Assembly: GCA_963784995.1 (NCBI GenBank)
Contig: CAWATZ010000006.1
Coordinates: 264,853 to 328,852 of the forward strand
DNA length: 64,000 bases
Direction of reading: 5' to 3'
From: an uncultured Planctomycetota bacterium
Lineage (GTDB): Bacteria > Planctomycetota > Planctomycetia > Gemmatales > Gemmataceae
In this document: in pieces, positions 9,088 through 24,176 of the stretch
How positions within the stretch are numbered: position 1 is the first letter of the stretch
Layout: each line of letters opens with the position of its first letter
Program-made: the position numbers and the translations under genes
The notes under the pieces: generated by a model
Databases searched by the model: none
Told to the model about the DNA's origin: nothing
The model's input: the letters and a program-made list of their open reading frames with translations, nothing else

Positions 9088-9088
9088 A

Positions 9089-9176
9089 GTCCCCGGGTTG
9101 CGCTGCGCTCCACCCGGGGCTTTAGTCCCGAAAGCAGGAGTAAAGCCCCGGGTGGAGCGCAGCGCAACCCGGGGAC
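9089..9176. repeat. Perfect 36-bp-arm inverted repeat (16-nt loop) immediately after the stop of HEAT/PQQ copy 4; putative terminator / member of the CGCTGCGCTC palindrome family
   Basis: gtccccgggttgcgctgcgctccacccggggcttta (9089-9124) is the exact reverse complement of 9141-9176. Confidence 0.7.
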
Positions 9177-9686
9177 TCGAAGACCCTCACCGGATCACCT
9201 TGGGCTCAACCCAGCACGGGAACCCCTGCCACTCGATTTCCGCTACCCCTGCGAACCGCCTTGTCTCCGCGAGCATCGCCGCAGCGGCGAACACCTCGCG
9301 CAGGCGTTCTAAAGAGGAGGCATCCGACGCGGTAAGGATTGCTGGAGGCCCCTCCCTCGATTCGCTTCTCGTCATGGCATGCTCGTCTTGCTGTGACCGA
9401 ACACCCCCGTTCAGCCGCCGGGGCCGCCGGGAGGGGACTGAACGTCTCGGGAAGCCCCGGTTGGCTGCAACGTCTCGTTCAGCGGCGCCAGGCTTTCATT
9501 TGGGGAATTGTATCGCCAGGATCGCCGGCCCGGCAAGCACAGGCGCCGGCTCACTCTGGCAAATGCTGTTCGCAGACGATGATCTATACTTGAGTGCTCT
9601 GGCTGCGACGACCGGCCGCGAGTGAAATCGCGCCCTGGCGGAGGGCGCGGCCCAGTTCACGCGCGGGTTCGAGCTGTGGAGGCGCA

Positions 9687-10799: not shown

Positions 10800-11186
10800 A
10801 GGCAGATGACGCTCCGGCGTCGCAGCAATTGGCAACTTCGCCTCCATCGACTGCGACGCGGCAGGTGAGTCAACTGCTCGTCGGGCGCCGACGAACGGCT
10901 ACCAGCCGGTGTCTAACCTGAACGAGATCAGCGCCCCCGGCTTCAATAGCGCCTGGCCTTTCTCGGTGAACTCGACGAGGAGCCCATCAGGTTGCCGCTC
11001 GACCCGGAACAGTGTCCTGTCCACCGGCCCCCGCGCCAGGGGATCTTCAACCAGCGCGTAGTAAGTGCCGTCCAGGCCCAGCCTATCGTCGCGTAAACCG
11101 TCCCGGACGCCAACACAGAGAGACAGCGGATCGCCCGTGCAGCCGTAGTCCGACGGGATGCCGGTCAGTCGGAACTTGACCGGTAT

Positions 11187-11602
11187 TTAACGCCGATTTC
11201 CACGGAGCGGTAATTCCTCACACGCCAACGAGAAAGCGACAAAGTAGGTCATGATTATCCGTGTACAATTCCTGGGGAAACCCCTTCTTCCGGACAGACC
11301 AGTGGTGAGATGGAGCATCCCGTGTGAGTCTTTTCACGGGAGAAACAGGGAACTTCCGGGACCCAAAATCTAGCGATCCGTTTAGTGGCTTTCTGATTCG
11401 CCTGCGCCGACGCACTGGGAATACAGCCGATTGCGGTCGTGCTACTCCAATAGCGACAATGGGGAGAGTATAAATTAACATTGCCAACTCGGCCTCCGGA
11501 TTACCGGAAATACTTCACAAGGCAATCCGTATTCCCCGAAAAACCCTGACCTCCCCCCGAAAAAGTGTGAGGAATTACCGCCCCGTGGAAATCGGCGTTC
11601 AA
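11187..11602. mobile_element. 416-bp element bounded by ~37-bp near-perfect terminal inverted repeats (TTAACGCCGATTTCCACGGAGCGGTAATTCCTCACAC ... GTGTGAGGAATTACCGCCCCGTGGAAATCGGCGTTCAA); MITE-like, lower-GC interior, no convincing ORF
   Basis: Left arm 11187-11223, right arm 11565-11602, 1-2 mismatches. Interior ORF 11218..11487 looks spurious. Confidence 0.4.
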
Positions 11603-13514: not shown

Positions 13515-13610
13515 CCCGAACGCCGAAATTCAGCAGCGGCGGCCGCTCCTGAGACCTGGAATTACAGGAGCCATGTTGCGGCCGCCGTCTGCTGAAATGG
13601 TTGGTTCGGC
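13515..13610 (-). other. attC-like recombination site (96 bp) of the cassette carrying the aspartic-protease gene pair
   Basis: Read on the minus strand: GCCGAAC (R'') overlapping the stop codon, imperfect inverted repeat CAGCAGACGGCGGCCGC / GCGGCCGCCGCTGCTGAA, terminal GTTCGGG (R'). Confidence 0.55.
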
Positions 13611-13984
13611 TACCTGTGCCGGAGCCGTTTGATCGTTACTTTGCCGCGGTAACGAACTTGCATCTTCAACTCGTGACCGCGCAACAGCCTCATACCGACC
13701 AGGGGATCGGTGTCTGCTTCATCGACCAGAATTTGACGTACTTTGCTGTCCCAGACCACTTTACCCACGTACACCCGGAAAACGCAGGTGCTGCCGTCGG
13801 CCAGTGTTGCCCGTTGCGTGCTTTGCCAGCGCAGGCCCAAGAGCGTAATCAGAGCCGGCGGTAAGGTGAGCGCTCCGGTATATCCCGAGTCAATGACCGC
13901 TTCAATCTCTTGCTCGCGGCCCTTGCGACCTCGAACTGTCAAGCGAATACGGGCTTCGTCGGCCTTGACCGCGCCAGTAATCAT
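13610..13984 (-). CDS. Retropepsin-like (clan AA) aspartic protease, ~124 aa (DSGYTG active-site-like motif)
   Basis: Motif ...VIDSGYTGALTLP... Overlaps the upstream partner gene by 4 bp. Confidence 0.65.
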   Translation of the reverse strand: MITGAVKADEARIRLTVRGRKGREQEIEAVIDSGYTGALTLPPALITLLGLRWQSTQRATLADGSTCVFRVYVGKVVWDSKVRQILVDEADTDPLVGMRLLRGHELKMQVRYRGKVTIKRLRHR

Positions 13985-14259
13985 GGCAAGTCCTGGCGTA
14001 GTTGTCGCCCGCCGAATCTTCGCGTCGAGCGAGAGCCGATGCGCACCATCCAGATTTGTGCCTCGGGCAGGCGACGCCGCAGTTTGTTGCCTGCCTTCAT
14101 CTCATCGGCAGCAATTTCGTACTGACCCGTTTCTATGTCGATGGCGAGAAACTTGCCTGTGTCTTGGGCCGTCAGCTTGGGAAGAATCTCCTTTTCGTAG
14201 ATGGCATCGCCACGCCTCGCGAATTCTTCTTTGCTGTAGCGCGGTTGTAAGGTTGCCAT
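13981..14259 (-). CDS. Small partner protein (92 aa, DUF5678-like?) co-transcribed with the clan AA aspartic protease
   Basis: 4-bp overlap (translational coupling). ...KFLAIDIETGQYEIAADE... No confident family assignment. Confidence 0.55.
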   Translation of the reverse strand: MATLQPRYSKEEFARRGDAIYEKEILPKLTAQDTGKFLAIDIETGQYEIAADEMKAGNKLRRRLPEAQIWMVRIGSRSTRRFGGRQLRQDLP

Positions 14260-14493
14260 GCGTTTACTCCCGGAGCCGCTCTCGTATGAGGTTGCATTGT
14301 TCCCTGTTCATTTTACTGATCGACGTCCGCAGTCGCCAGCCCTAAACCGAGGGCCCATTTGATACTCCGCTTGGAGGTAATCTACCCTGCCCCCATTTCT
14401 CTCCAACGAAAAGAAGAAAAAAACCTGCAGCATTCCGGAGTGCGCCTATTGACAAAAGAGGTCAGTGAGCGGTGCGCCCGACGTTGTTTCGCC

Positions 14494-14883
14494 CTATAGC
14501 TCGAACCACGACACGGCCTCCGACATCTGTTTAGCGCGAAAGAACTCCTTGGCGACGGAGCATGCCGTCTCGAACGGGACGATGAAATCGTTTGGCGTTT
14601 GCTCGCCGCTTGCCGGATCGCAACCTCGATACACAAGCGTCGTCCATCCGCCTTCGGGCAAGCCGTGACCGCCGAGACACCGGAAGCCGGGGTGGCCATC
14701 CCGCGGGAAATAGTGGACATCGGCCACATCCCCGCTGACGCGGAGTGCCAGGGCGGGATACTTTTCCTCGTTGGGGGTCAGCCAGAATAATCCGCCTCCG
14801 CGATCGTCGCGCCAAGCAAGAGCTGCTTCCAAGCTCTTGTCGTCCTCCGCGTGCCACGTTTGACGATACCCGTCTATTCGCAC
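14494..14883 (-). CDS. Cassette-like small protein (129 aa), possibly Imm1-family polymorphic-toxin immunity protein
   Basis: ...AWRDDRGGGLFWLTPNEEKYPALALRVSGDVADVHYFP... resembles Imm1 signatures from memory. Small, minus strand, inside the attC array. Confidence 0.5.
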   Translation of the reverse strand: MRIDGYRQTWHAEDDKSLEAALAWRDDRGGGLFWLTPNEEKYPALALRVSGDVADVHYFPRDGHPGFRCLGGHGLPEGGWTTLVYRGCDPASGEQTPNDFIVPFETACSVAKEFFRAKQMSEAVSWFEL

Positions 14884-14898
14884 TGGAATCCTCTTCGC

Positions 14899-14997
14899 TG
14901 CGAACGAAAAGGATAAGCTGCCGGGGCCGCCTGCAAGACCTCCATGCCGCGCGAAACCAGGATGGCGGCCCCGGTCAGCTTCATCCGGTGGTTCGGC
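14899..14997 (-). other. attC-like recombination site (99 bp) downstream of the lipoprotein cassette gene
   Basis: Minus strand: GCCGAAC ... inverted repeat GCTGACCGGGGCCGCC / GGCGGCCCCGGCAGC ... GTTCGCA. Same architecture as 13515-13610 and 15684-15782. Confidence 0.45.
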
Positions 14998-15040
14998 GGC
15001 CTGCCACCCTGTGTTGGCCCAAGCCGGAATTGCCCCCTGG

Positions 15041-15658
15041 CTACTTCAACCCGTCCGTGAGACCTGGCTCCTTTTCTTGCAGATGTTTCAGCAGCACTTC
15101 CGCATAGCGCTCGACGTCCGCTGTCTCCTCAAGCTTCGGCACCTCAGCGGGCAGGGCGATCTTCTTCTGCTGATAGGTAGGCGAAGCGGCTGTCAGGTCC
15201 AGCACGAAGACTCGGCCGGCGGCAGGATCAACCTCCTTACCGCCCACGGTAAGCACCTCTTTCGTGACCGCCGTGCGTTCCTTATTTAGCTCGTAATGGG
15301 CCGCCGCTTCAATGCGCTTGCCGTTGATCGTGCAGACGCTTTTGACTTCCACATCGCCCTGGCTGCGCGCGTAGCCGTCCAGGCCGAGCGAGCTTTCGTT
15401 GGATGTGGGCGGCAGCTTGAAAAGAATGATGTAGGTCAGTTGCTGGGAGGTCTTGGGCTTCGTCACCGTGCCAAACGTCACCCCAGGCTTGCCGGGGAGG
15501 ACCACGAGATGGCCGCCCGAAACCGCGAAATCGTTCGTAGCGGAGAGGAAACCGGCCGTGGTAATTTTTGGCTGAGGAGCGACACGATTGCCACAGCCGA
15601 CGGCGCCCGTCAGGGCGATAAGCAGCCCAAAACCATGCCAAGCACAACGTGTGTTCAT
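15041..15658 (-). CDS. Hypothetical lipoprotein (signal peptide + lipobox LTGAVGC), cassette-encoded
   Basis: MNTRCAWHGFGLLIALTGAVGCGN... Minus strand between two attC-like sites. Confidence 0.65.
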   Translation of the reverse strand: MNTRCAWHGFGLLIALTGAVGCGNRVAPQPKITTAGFLSATNDFAVSGGHLVVLPGKPGVTFGTVTKPKTSQQLTYIILFKLPPTSNESSLGLDGYARSQGDVEVKSVCTINGKRIEAAAHYELNKERTAVTKEVLTVGGKEVDPAAGRVFVLDLTAASPTYQQKKIALPAEVPKLEETADVERYAEVLLKHLQEKEPGLTDGLK

Positions 15659-15683
15659 CCGGAATTGTCTCCCAGTGCTGCGA

Positions 15684-15782
15684 GTCGAACGCCCCGCTCA
15701 GCAGCCGGCTCACGCGGGCCAGACAGCGAAGCTCGACAAGACTCACTCGCGTGGCCGGTCTGCTGCAGCTTTTGGTTCGGCG
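15684..15782 (-). other. attC-like recombination site (99 bp) 8 nt downstream of the stop of ORF 15791..16348
   Basis: + strand: GTCGAACGCC-ccg-CTCAGCAGCCGGCTCACGCG ... CGCGTGGCCGGTCTGCTGCAGC-TTTTGGTTCGGC. Nearly identical ends to site 13515-13610 (GAACGCC...CAGCAGC / TCTGCTG...TTGGTTCGGC). Confidence 0.55.
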
Positions 15783-15790
15783 TTCCTTTG

Positions 15791-16348
<558 letters not shown>

Positions 16349-17048
16349 CCACGCTACTCCAAGAGGGCAGACCAGACGAGAGGTCTTTGTGTCTCAGGGA
16401 CGCACCAAGGTAGCCGCATTACGCGGCCCTCGACATCTGCATTTCCCTGTGAGGTCTGTTGGCTCTTGTTTGGAGATAACGGCGGGCAGTCCATTCGCCA
16501 TCCGCTCCGTTACGTCGTTGTTGTCACCCTGGCGGACCTTCACCCTGTCTGACCCATTACAGCTCAGCGTTCGGCTACTACGCCGCCTCCGCCATCCTGC
16601 CCGCTCGCTGGCATTGTCGCGTCTGTTGGCCCGGTTGGACTCCAGGTACAGATGCAGCGGTTTAGGATTTCCCACCTTCCGTAAGCACAGACTGTAGAAC
16701 CCTTAGCTGCCTGCTCCACGCCGGGTGGCTGGGTGACAACACGTTTGGCGTTCGGAAACCAAACGTCCCTCCACCATACCTTTTGGTCCAGGTGATGCAG
16801 CCGTTGCACCTGTTATCACTTACGACGCTCACTCGCAGGTTTCTCGCGTCAGCATCGGTTCAGGGTTCGACACGCAGCCACTTTCGGCTGGCAGCCGGTG
16901 TTCTTTGTCAGCAGGCTTCCCACCTTACCCTTTGCCAAAGGGGAACGCAGGCTGCTCAACCCTTACACCGTTGTCATGGTATAGCTCCTTCAGAGCAATC
17001 TGTACATACGTTAAGTGGCGCACCCGAACTTGTGATTAGGCTGACCGG

Positions 17049-17206
17049 CCGGTCAGCATATTTCTCCCGGTCAGCATATTTCGCCTGGTCTCGCTATCAA
17101 GGCTCCGGTCAGCCTATTTCCGCTTCCCGGTCCGCCTAGCAAGGCGTCGGTCAGCCTATTTCCAGCTGCCCGGTCAGCGTATTTTTCCCCGGTCAGCCTA
17201 TCACGG
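17049..17206. repeat. Array of seven direct repeats CCGGTCAGC[A/C]TATTTC (16-18 bp, spacing 0-22 bp), preceded by perfect palindrome CTGACCGGCCGGTCAG (17041-17056), about 120 bp upstream of intI
   Basis: Units at 17049, 17067, 17105, 17127, 17147, 17170 and 17189. Non-coding. Could be IntI accessory sites in attI or regulator binding sites. Confidence 0.6.
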
Positions 17207-17242
17207 TTTGTCCCCCAGTTCAATTTTTTTCTTTTTTTCTTC

Positions 17243-17272
17243 TTGACATCGTGACAGAGAAAAGTTAATGAT
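17243..17272 (+). promoter_or_regulatory. Sigma70-like promoter (TTGACA-N18-TAATGA) for intI in an AT-rich island
   Basis: TTGACA at 17243-17248, TAATGA at 17267-17272. The only AT-rich stretch in the region. RBS AGGAGG at 17312-17317. Confidence 0.35.
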
Positions 17273-17276
17273 CTCG

Positions 17277-17291
17277 TGTTCATATTGAACA
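17277..17291. promoter_or_regulatory. Perfect 15-bp palindrome TGTTCAtatTGAACA between the -10 element and the intI RBS; candidate operator (LexA-type?)
   Basis: Perfect 6-3-6 palindrome overlapping the predicted transcription start. I recall integron integrases being commonly SOS-regulated. Confidence 0.35.
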
Positions 17292-17323
17292 AAGAGTCAC
17301 ATTCCCTGTTCAGGAGGAAAGCC

Positions 17324-18142
17324 ATGTCTGATGATCGCGGTCCGTCCCCAGAGTCGTCCGCCCAGCCATCGCCGCCGCGCTTGCTCGACCAGTTGTGTCA
17401 AGTCGCACGGAAGCGTGGCCATGCCGAATGGACTGTGGCCGACTACGTCAAGTGGGTCCGCCGCCTGGTCCGCTTCCACGGCCAGCGCCATCCCCGGGAG
17501 CTGGGTCTTGCGGAAGTGTCCCAGTTCCTGGAGTCGGTTGCCCAGACGGAGAAAAACCCAGTCCGGGCCATCGCCGCCAGCCGGGAGGCCCTCGATTTCC
17601 TGTATCGCGAGGTGCTGTGCCTGGACCTGGGAGAGCTGCCCTGGCCGAGGCCGCCCCGGCTGCTCGACCAGGTCCGCCAGGTGCTGCGCGTCCGCCACTA
17701 TGCCCGCCGTACCGAGGACTGTTACCTCGGCTGGATCCTCCGCTTCATCTTCTTTCACAAGAAACGTCACCCCCGCGACATGGGCGCTGCCGAGGTGGAG
17801 CAGTTCCTCACCGACCTGGCGGTCCGCGGCCACGTCTCGGCCAGCACGCAAAACCAGGCGCTGAACGCCCTGGTGTTCCTGTATCAGCAAGTATTGGAGA
17901 TCGACCTGGGCCGGCTGGACGCGGTGCGGGCGCGGCGGCCGAAACGGCTGCCCGTGGTGCTGGCTCCCGAGGAAGTCGCGGCGGTGCTGCAACGCATCGA
18001 GGGAGGGGACGGCGTCTTCCAGTTGATGGCCCGGCTGCTCTACGGCTGCGGTCTGCGGCTGCTGGAATGCTGTCAGCTGCGTGTCAAGGACGTCCAGCTG
18101 GCCCGTGGGCAGATCGTCGTGCGCGGCGGCAAGGGGAACAAG
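17324..18142 (+). pseudogene. intI: Integron integrase intI remnant: IntI1-like N-terminal half with a tandemly duplicated, diverged N-terminal domain, truncated after GKGNK (no catalytic R-H-R-Y domain)
   Basis: ...HYARRTEDCYLGWILRFIFFHKKRHPRDMGAAEVEQFLTDLA...VSASTQNQALNALVFLYQQVL...RRLPVVLAPEEVAAVLQRIEGGDGVFQLMARLLYGCGLRLLECCQLRVKDVQLARGQIVVRGGKGNK aligns closely with IntI1 residues ~20-175. No frame downstream encodes a tyrosine-recombinase catalytic domain. Confidence 0.8.
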
Positions 18143-18228
18143 GAAGTAGCTGCCGTTGGGCAGGGTGCAACAGGAACAAGACCCAGGGATGGTAGCCGGG
18201 CACCGTCTGCCTGCCCGACAGCTCCTGG

Positions 18229-23126: not shown

Positions 23127-24062
23127 TCAACCCTGCTCGGTCCCTCGCGGATGGAAGCGCTGGTGAATGGCCTTGAGCCGGTCGCGGTCCACGTGGGTGT
23201 AGCGCTGGGTGGTCTGGATGCTGCTGTGGCCGAGCAGCTCCTGGACGGTGCGCAGGTCGGCGCCGCCGGCCAGCAGGTGCGTGGCGAAGCTGTGTCGCAG
23301 CGTGTGCGGACTGACGCGGGCGTTCAGGCCGGTGCGGCGGACGTACTTCTTGACCACCACCCAGAGCATCTCGCGCGTCAGTTGCCGGCCGCCCCGGCTG
23401 ACGAAGACCCATTCCGTCTCGGGTGCGGTCTGGACCAGCGAGGGCCGTTGCTGTTCCAGGTAGGTGCGCAGGGCGTGGATGGCGGGCTTACCGATCGGCA
23501 CGATGCGCTGCTTGCTGCCCTTGCCGAAGCATTTGAGGAAGGACGAGTCCAGATGCAGGTCGGTCAGCTTGAGCCCGACCACCTCCGAGGCCCGCGCGCC
23601 GGTGGCGTACAGCGTCTCCAGGATGGCCCGGTCGCGCAGGTAAAAGCGATCCTGCGACAGGGGGGCTTCCAGCAGCCGGGTCACCGCCTCCGGGCTGAGC
23701 ACCTGCGGAATGCGGGCCCACAGGCTCGGGGAGCTGAGCAGATCGACCGTGCCGGTGGTGGTGCGCTCCTCCAGGCGCAGGAAGCGGTAGAACATCTTGA
23801 GCGAGACCAGGTGCCGGGCCTGGCTGGCCGGCGCCAGCCCTTCGGTGCGGAGGAACTCGACGTAGTCGGTCAGCTCGCGGAGGTTGGGCAGCAGGTAATT
23901 GGCAACGCCGCCGCCGGCCACCCAGTGGAGGAACCGATCCAGGTCGCGCGTGTAGGCCAGGTAGGTGTTGTTCGCCAGGCCGCGCTCGCCCTGGACGTAG
24001 TGGCGAAAGGCCTGGATGTCGTCGTTGAGAGCGGTAAAGCGGGCGGTCTCGTCGGTGGGCAT
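23127..24062 (-). CDS. xerD: Tyrosine recombinase XerC/XerD family
   Basis: Full catalytic domain ...ARASEVVGLKLTDL...GKGSKQRIVP...HTLRHSFATHLLAGGADLRTVQELLGHSSIQTTQRYTHV. Confidence 0.85.
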   Translation of the reverse strand: MPTDETARFTALNDDIQAFRHYVQGERGLANNTYLAYTRDLDRFLHWVAGGGVANYLLPNLRELTDYVEFLRTEGLAPASQARHLVSLKMFYRFLRLEERTTTGTVDLLSSPSLWARIPQVLSPEAVTRLLEAPLSQDRFYLRDRAILETLYATGARASEVVGLKLTDLHLDSSFLKCFGKGSKQRIVPIGKPAIHALRTYLEQQRPSLVQTAPETEWVFVSRGGRQLTREMLWVVVKKYVRRTGLNARVSPHTLRHSFATHLLAGGADLRTVQELLGHSSIQTTQRYTHVDRDRLKAIHQRFHPRGTEQG

Positions 24063-24080
24063 GGGGCCTCCCGCATCATG

Positions 24081-24176
24081 CTCCCCTCTCCCCTTGTGGG
24101 AGAGGGGTTGGGGGTGAGGGGCTTTTTCCGATTTATCGTTTCGCGCTCGCTAACCCAGCGCGAAACGATAAATCAA
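24081..24176. repeat. REP-like composite palindromic element copy 1: CCCCTCTCCCC-N4-GGGAGAGGGG hairpin, TTGGGGGTGAGGGG, and GATTTATCGTTTCGCGCT-loop-AGCGCGAAACGATAAATC hairpin
   Basis: Same composite element recurs at 44741-44890 and 60010-60106. Confidence 0.7.

Follow-up and report, generated by a model that had tools for sequence, protein, structure and literature searches.

Does the promoter of an integron integrase gene in a planctomycete answer to the SOS response, and through what kind of operator would it do so? On the accepted view, stress is linked to cassette shuffling by SOS control of integron integrases, which to our knowledge has been documented only for Escherichia coli-type LexA boxes. 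LexA control of the integrase promoter (PintI) is known for intI1 and for Vibrio cholerae intIA (Guerin et al. 2009; Cambray et al. 2011, PMC3108266). Cambray et al. also reported that the E. coli motif is not the one used by planctomycete LexA, and they found a non-E. coli LexA motif in none of the intI promoters; the planctomycete Rhodopirellula baltica stood as an unexplained exception (PMC3108266). The 64-kb stretch of DNA analyzed here (the window) carries a truncated integron integrase gene (intI), and positions 17243 to 17326 form the promoter and leader of this chromosomal gene in a Gemmataceae-like planctomycete. Judged from sequence comparisons, the promoter leans toward being controlled by LexA through an SOS-type operator of three half-sites (probability roughly 0.55).

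Two overlapping dyads in the intI promoter

As the initial annotation of this DNA had stated, the promoter lies in the sole A+T-rich stretch of its neighborhood; at 17100 to 17399 the GC content is 0.485 to 0.49 against 0.58 to 0.70 in the flanks. That annotation had also read the promoter as TTGACA-N18-TAATGA. Both elements are present, but TAATGA stands 17 nt from the −35 hexamer, and the 18-nt spacer fits AATGAT, the best −10 in the promoter scan; TTGACA and AATGAT together match 10 of 12 consensus positions. The ribosome-binding site was correctly placed as AGGAGG-N6-ATG (Table 1), and the promoter does serve a truncated gene, the open reading frame (ORF) being an IntI fragment that ends at codon 274.

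Between the −10 and the ribosome-binding site, where it had been annotated, is the perfect 6-3-6 palindrome TGTTCAtatTGAACA (TGTTCATATTGAACA), TGTTCA-tat-TGAACA. It begins 5 nt past the predicted −10 and occupies approximately +1 to +13, a position suited to an operator, as had been proposed. Written as an SOS-type dyad it is TGTTC-N5-GAACA, with a spacer of 5 bp. Its symmetry alone is not beyond chance, as the window contains 40 perfect 6-3-6 palindromes compared with 27.8 in shuffled sequences, although TGTTCAtatTGAACA is the only A+T-rich one among them. Matches to the exact 15-mer at up to three mismatches are expected 0.15 times per window, and the matches listed from an exact search of viral contigs were unrelated. 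Near-matches to the N5 dyad were found nine times in the window (2.3 expected), inside ORFs or, at 16636, inside a group II intron, an excess attributed to sequence composition. What makes the palindrome significant is not its symmetry but where it lies, that the closest ortholog keeps it, and which half-sites it is made of.

A second dyad overlaps both the palindrome and the −10. This sequence, TGATCtcgtGTTCA (TGATC-tcgt-GTTCA), is the sole perfect match to TGWWC-N4-GWWCA in the window (0.26 expected) and has two mismatches to the stricter TGTWC-N4-GWACA. Its right half is the left half of the palindrome, so that three hexamers follow one another: H1 (TGATCt, from 17269), H2 (TGTTCA, from 17277), and H3 (TGAACA, from 17286), at start-to-start distances of 8 and 9 nt. 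Three such hexamers also occur in two orthologous promoters (L005 and L220), at 8 and 8 nt. In a MAFFT alignment, TGATCtcgtGTTCA (H1 and H2) was placed against the N4 dyad of the outgroup promoters L004 and L221, whereas alignment by eye made the palindrome an insertion of approximately 22 nt relative to L001; both alignments are given and neither is relied on. A further TGTTCA at 17307 to 17312 is identical in the closest ortholog, and (T/G)GTTC occurs at approximately 29 to 30 nt in L001, L009, and L010 as well. What it signifies is uncertain, given its overlap with the conserved ribosome-binding site. No E. coli-type CTGT-N8-ACAG box was found in 17240 to 17326, in agreement with the conclusion of Cambray et al. 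on planctomycete LexA.

SOS-type sites at planctomycete recA and intI promoters

The nearest validated reference is the LexA box of Verrucomicrobia, TGTTC-N4-GAACA, confirmed on a recA promoter by electrophoretic mobility shift assay (Erill et al. 2016, PMC4951493); the site set of that study includes TGGTCATTTGTACA at a recA promoter. Verrucomicrobia and planctomycetes both belong to the Planctomycetes-Verrucomicrobia-Chlamydiae (PVC) superphylum, and the half-sites of the window palindrome, TGTTC and GAACA, are those of the verrucomicrobial box. One verrucomicrobial site, TGTTCAATTGAACA, is a single spacer base away from the palindrome (PMC4951493), and the additional flanking TGTTC half-sites of the window recall the verrucomicrobial lexA operators, which are arranged in tandem. 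The palindrome has a 5-bp spacer compared with 4 bp in the verrucomicrobial box, and the host phylum differs too.

No description of a planctomycete LexA motif was found in the literature searched, and a motif was therefore derived from planctomycete recA promoters; the supplements of the Verrucomicrobia study held no planctomycete entries (PMC4951493). Genome contigs were scanned for TGTAC-N{4,5}-GWACA followed 95 to 125 nt on by a sequence coding for the RecA motif FGKGS. This yielded 42 hits, mostly from Proteobacteria, whose CTGT-N8-ACAG box is compatible with TGTAC-N4-GTACA, and a single one from a planctomycete (L174). The low planctomycete yield is explained by the degenerate left half-site at recA (TGTAC in two of seven sites), and variation in the distance from the box to FGKGS may be a further cause. 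The RecA of L174 then served as the seed for planctomycete RecAs, and six more were looked up without reference to the motif. The seven sources comprised STL-PLA14, Singulisphaera Ch08, SH-PL62, Kolteria Pan216, and three further planctomycete genomes.

In all seven recA promoters, TGnnC-N4-GTACA abuts or overlaps the −10 (Table 1). The promoter-distal GTACA half is invariant, and the half beside the −10 is degenerate. For the six promoters found independently of the motif, the best N4 matches had 0, 1, 1, 1, 2, and 0 mismatches; an equally good match arose in 0 to 3% of shuffles for five of them and in 15% for the site with two mismatches. With spacers of 3, 5, or 6 bp, approximately 50 to 100% of shuffles did as well, which is background, so only the 4-bp spacer is enriched. 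The motif differs from the verrucomicrobial TGTTC-N4-GAACA by one base per half-site, the planctomycete sites favoring GTACA where the verrucomicrobial box has GAACA. Because it occurs at recA, lies at the −10, and is nearly identical to the validated verrucomicrobial box, we infer that TGnnC-N4-GTACA is a planctomycete SOS operator, and the recA dyad would then be a LexA site. A gene of LigT type (2′-5′ RNA ligase) precedes recA in L214, L215, L217, and L218, and relative to the start codon the operator begins at −45 in L214, L215, and L218 and at −47 in L217; this conserved architecture could anchor the collection of more recA promoters.

Compared with the verrucomicrobial and planctomycete recA sites, the window palindrome matches the inverted half-sites TGTWC and GWACA without mismatch (TGTTC ... 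GAACA). The suggestion in the initial annotation that its half-sites were LexA-like was accurate for the PVC superphylum as far as the half-sites go; the 5-bp spacer is unlike the 4-bp box. The initial annotation had proposed a search for the same palindrome at SOS genes such as recA. Upstream of recA in other planctomycetes the half-sites proved to be of the same kind, but all seven operators had N4 spacing and N5 remained at background. Conversely, TGATCtcgtGTTCA has the 4-bp spacer of a PVC-type LexA operator but two suboptimal halves. Each half has a recA precedent: TGATC occurs in SH-PL62, and GTTCA is the complement of TGAAC in Kolteria. In placement, H1 overlaps the predicted −10 AATGAT, as the recA sites do theirs.

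Upstream DNA of orthologous intI genes was obtained from a metagenome scan and exact look-ups. The closest ortholog (locus L051, protein P0002) encodes a full-length IntI of 451 amino acids, 90% identical to the window fragment, behind the same promoter. At the position of the palindrome it has TGTTCActcTGTACA (TGTTCA-ctc-TGTACA), in which both half-sites and the N5 spacing are kept. The four substitutions separating the two 15-mers fall on the three spacer bases and on one W position (T to A), a pattern that is suggestive at most, coming from two sequences and possibly including a single-event triple substitution.

The T-rich tract followed by TTGAC is kept in orthologous intI promoters, and TTGAC and the GGAGG of the ribosome-binding site are invariant in the MAFFT alignment. 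More distant orthologs (up to 83% identity) have the T-tract, TTGAC, and a 14-bp N4 dyad right over the −10 (Table 1). In 11 nonredundant intI promoters, the best matches to TGTWC-N4-GWACA summed to 14 mismatches compared with 36.7 in shuffles, a value reached in none of 400 shuffles. Across approximately 129 kb of planctomycete loci, 13 of the 17 N4 hits with at most one mismatch lie in intI or recA promoters, so the N4 dyad is not a general promoter feature. An operator is conserved in orthologous integron loci, a point that the initial annotation had treated as decisive: L051 keeps the N5 dyad, and 11 others have the N4 dyad.

Two side observations concern these promoters. Most orthologs (L001, L004, L007 to L016, L042, and L221) carry a conserved (C)TGTCAAG or GTCAAG element ahead of the T-tract, approximately 45 nt 5′ of the −35; the window lacks it and has TGTCCcccaGTTCA in its place (17209 to 17222). 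Other IntI clades from other phyla (L019 and L022; L025, L027, L028, and L030; approximately 58 to 61% identity) have promoter-embedded repeats of their own. They include the palindrome TACTGAA-N6-TTCAGTA, in which the −10 itself (TATAAT or ACTAAT) forms the 6-nt spacer, and the direct repeat ATTTTCGC-N3-ATTTTCGCC. The latter has the form TTTC-N7-TTTC and is reminiscent of the LexA box GTTC-N7-GTTC. SOS-like boxes specific to a lineage may be general at intI promoters.

Proposed LexA control and its alternatives

Under the favored reading, the composite operator of H1, H2, and H3 would span the region from the −10 to approximately +13. LexA bound there would occlude the −10 and the start site, and intI would stay silent until DNA damage triggered LexA self-cleavage, as for intI1 and Vibrio intIA. 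The arrangement is like that of these two genes in that the operator overlaps the −10 and the predicted start site, adjoins a candidate attI, and is divergent from the putative cassettes; the proposed logic, repression lifted by DNA damage, would also be the same. The half-sites differ: intI1 and intIA have E. coli-type CTGT-N8-ACAG boxes, whereas the window operator is made of TGWWC half-sites. As to which pair LexA would bind in the window, geometry favors H1 and H2, with their canonical 4-bp spacer, whereas conservation favors H2 and H3, because H1 has changed nondegenerately in L051 (TGGTC).

The cyanobacterial LexA box is RGTAC-N3-DGTWCB. The Cheo box of Gram-positive bacteria is GAAC-N4-GTTC (PMC4951493). 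Both share with the planctomycete N4 dyads a GTAC or GTTC core and a start-to-start spacing of 8 bp, but they differ in flanking bases and half-site orientation, and the window palindrome is spaced at 9 bp.

Several points weigh against LexA control. LexA dimers are generally strict about spacing, and the palindrome is an N5 dyad; a 5-bp spacer occurs in none of the seven recA operators and is at background in the 11 more distant intI promoters. The alternative pair, H1 and H2, has two suboptimal halves and no counterpart of the invariant GTACA half of the recA sites, and the TGGTC of L051, a non-W change, weakens it further. The loose consensus TGWWC-N4-GWWCA is built on seven recA sites, and the one SOS gene behind it is recA, from other Planctomycetota rather than from the source genome or a confirmed member of the Gemmataceae. 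The 11 intI promoters are related by descent, so the shuffle test overstates their independence.

The N5 spacing, unlike that of every SOS-type site found, is also the starting point for a different proposal, in which the 15-bp palindrome is the operator of some other dimeric regulator (TGTWCA-N3-TGWACA) that replaced ancestral SOS control in this sublineage. Such a regulator would account for a dyad that is kept in L051 beside an intact intI while its spacer and a W position vary freely, and for the degraded H1 of the N4 candidate there. Nevertheless, the half-sites are exactly those of the SOS box of the phylum, and neither the window nor L051 shows a candidate regulator gene next to intI. 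A dedicated regulon would be expected to show more sites, whereas no further intergenic N5 dyad was present in the window or in the approximately 129 kb of related loci (a small sample). We consider replacement by another regulator unlikely.

It is improbable, too, that the palindrome is a nonfunctional or weakened relic, either an SOS box that a 1-bp shift in spacing has spoiled or half-sites paired by chance, tolerated as the integrases of the sublineage decay. Decay is evident: of the four closest integrases, three carry a truncation or an internal deletion. Integrase inactivation and the loss of LexA control are correlated (PMC3108266), and the 40 perfect palindromes of the window make a chance origin easier to accept. 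A relic would not, however, be expected 5′ of the full-length integrase of L051 (TIGR02249, 469 bits), where the same N5 dyad stands, nor would it readily explain why all four substitutions between the two sequences avoid the constrained half-site positions, suggestive as a comparison of two sequences can be. An RNA hairpin in the 5′ leader acting on translation or stability was rejected as highly improbable: a 21-nt segment of the window folds into a 6-bp hairpin (−4.1 kcal/mol; z = −3.0), but the right-arm substitution in L051 is uncompensated and abolishes it (−0.2 kcal/mol; z = +0.8), and neither leader, taken whole, folds better than its shuffles (z = −0.03 and −0.36), which argues for a protein-binding dyad rather than an RNA structure.

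Returning to the SOS-type operator, repression of intI by LexA is a known mechanism; what would be new is a phylum-specific motif at intI promoters, together with an off-spacing variant of it. A wider account, which we put forward tentatively and at somewhat under even odds, is that planctomycete chromosomal integrons kept SOS control of intI by tracking the TGnnC-N4-GTACA motif of their phylum, and that one Gemmataceae-like sublineage rebuilt it into a three-half-site array whose best-conserved pair is the 15-bp N5 palindrome. If so, the inference of 2011, by which intI simply escaped LexA control wherever the LexA motif is not of the E. coli type, would be overturned, and the array would provide a natural test case for how large a spacing change a LexA dimer tolerates. 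Were the planctomycete sites real LexA operators, the coupling of DNA damage to integron recombination would be older and more actively maintained than documented to date, with the operator coevolving with a divergent repressor. TGnnC-N4-GTACA, if real, would be the first working definition of a planctomycete SOS box and could be used to map the regulon. For this window there is little practical consequence, the integrase downstream of the promoter being inactivated already.

The truncated integrase gene and its surroundings

The integrase ORF of the window contains Phage_int_SAM_4 in two stretches, together with the initial third of the catalytic domain (Pfam). It matches positions 1 to 160 of the 315 of TIGR02249 with 255 bits, below the cutoff of 265 only because it is truncated; full-length P0002 scores 469.6 bits. 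Homology to planctomycete integron integrases of approximately 450 amino acids ends at codon 274 (nucleotide 18145), P0002 and P0001 being 90 to 92% identical to the window integrase over residues 1 to 274 only. The codon-position GC signal is lost past approximately 18150, and the missing 177 C-terminal residues had no match anywhere in the window. The IntI-specific domain (ALER/KYP patch) and the distal catalytic His, the second Arg, and the Tyr nucleophile are absent from the window copy, whereas P0002 retains these motifs (ELPEALERKYPRAAQDLGWQFVF...HSFATH...MIYTHV). The copy in the window is an IntI pseudogene and is inactivated.

The initial annotation had regarded an intact promoter on a truncated intI as notable. 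This view was not upheld: inactivation is frequent, affecting 43 to 46% of intI genes (PMC3108266), and two of the three closest relatives are truncated in other ways. P0001 has 361 amino acids and diverges beyond approximately residue 335, and P0003 (316 amino acids) has an internal deletion fusing approximately residue 290 to approximately residue 430. The window copy, P0001, and P0003 were damaged independently, and only P0002 (L051) is intact. The planctomycete IntI family (window 17324 to 17900; P0001 to P0120) has a duplicated N-terminal SAM-like domain, with PF13495 at residues ~20 to 100 and ~113 to 195, which brings these proteins to approximately 450 amino acids compared with approximately 320 to 340 for classical IntI. 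No planctomycete record was present among the best-scoring IntI matches listed from a plasmid collection. A second tyrosine recombinase, intact and of the XerC/XerD type, is encoded 5 kb from the dead intI on the minus strand (23127 to 24149; Phage_integrase E value, 2.9e−48).

Table 1. Elements of the intI locus and the SOS-type sites with which they were compared
Feature	Position or locus	Strand	Basis or remark
ORF-less group II intron, ~760 nt	16264-17023	-	Rfam; between cassette side and attI-like array
Array of ~8 copies of CCGGTCAGCnTATTTC	17037-17205	+	Repeat families D1-D3, I2-I6; just 5′ of promoter
T-rich tract, UP-element-like	17224-17242	+	Read from letters; immediately 5′ of −35
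−35 hexamer TTGACA	17243-17248	+	Promoter scan
Alternative −10 reading TAATGA	17266-17271	+	17-nt spacer
Best −10 AATGAT	17267-17272	+	Promoter scan; 18-nt spacer
N4 dyad TGATCtcgtGTTCA	17269-17282		Half-sites H1, H2; overlaps −10
Perfect 6-3-6 palindrome TGTTCAtatTGAACA	17277-17291		Half-sites H2, H3
Further half-site TGTTCA	17307-17312	+	30 nt 3′ of H2; overlaps ribosome-binding site
Ribosome-binding site AGGAGG	17312-17317	+	6 nt ahead of ATG
Start codon ATG	17324-17326	+	intI start
Truncated integron integrase gene, codons 1-274	17324-18145	+	Pfam, TIGR02249, homology, codon-position GC
recA operator TATAA-TGTACgcggGTACA	L174		Motif-based scan
recA operator TGTTCttgtGTACA	L214		Singulisphaera Ch08
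recA operator TGATCgggcGTACA	L215		SH-PL62
recA operator TGAACctacGTACA	L216		Kolteria Pan216
recA operator TGTCCtaacGTACA	L217
recA operator TGAGCtaacGTACA	L218
recA operator TGTACgcaaGTACA	L219
intI N4 dyad TGTACtaaaGTACA	L014
intI N4 dyad TGTACtgaaGTACA	L016
intI N4 dyad TGTATtcctGTACA	L009
intI N4 dyad TGTACgaaaGGACA	L008
intI N4 dyad TGTACtaatGTATA	L007
intI N4 dyad TGTACatacGTACC	L005		With overlapping TGTAAtagtGTACA
intI N4 dyad GGTACtactGTTCA	L010
intI N4 dyad AGTACacttGAACA	L220		Gemmataceae metagenome-assembled genome
intI dyad TGTAC-N4-GTTAA or TGTAC-N4-GTCAA	L001, L004, L221 group

An integron context for the window is plausible. Within the array just 5′ of the promoter, an inverted copy of CCGGTCAGCnTATTTC at 17037 to 17048 makes the perfect hairpin GCTGACCGG/CCGGTCAGC (17040 to 17057). 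Comparable CCGGTC-N4-TAT/TAA... arrays (CCGGTCAGCATAA... and CCGGTCtgtCTATTACGG...) lie 5′ of orthologous intI genes (L001 to L016, L040, L220, and L221). Three related, attC-like repeats of 39 nt separate ORFs on the cassette side (13578 to 13616, 14965 to 15003, and 15749 to 15787), and their common core CCGGTC(A/T)GC links them to the array. The array is a candidate attI, unusually iterated, whose repeats likely bind IntI. Small ORFs on the minus strand, divergent from intI, occupy 13981 to 16348.

The group II intron was recognized from its domains V and VI (RF00029 at 16264 to 16338; 70 bits), a weak match to domains D1 to D4 (RF02012, D1-D4-7, at 16870 to 16983; E value, 5e−4), and a 5′ end of GTGCG at 17023 to 17019 on the minus strand. 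It begins 17 nt downstream, on that strand, of the hairpin GCTGACCGG/CCGGTCAGC. Class C (attC-type) introns use targets of this kind, placed next to a hairpin.

Searches by tblastn with E. coli and Bacillus subtilis LexA and E. coli RecA as queries found no lexA or recA in the window or in the loci collected first, and the same LexA queries found no LexA in any collected locus. The window encodes proteins with PSCyt1, PSCyt2, and PSD1 domains, and the named relatives of its housekeeping ABC ATPase are all Gemmataceae (70 to 73% identity). Elsewhere in the window are a near-perfect 41-nt inverted repeat with an 8-nt loop (9088 to 9177) and a pair of 38-nt inverted repeats (95% complementary) around 341 nt (11186 to 11602), which looks like a small mobile element.

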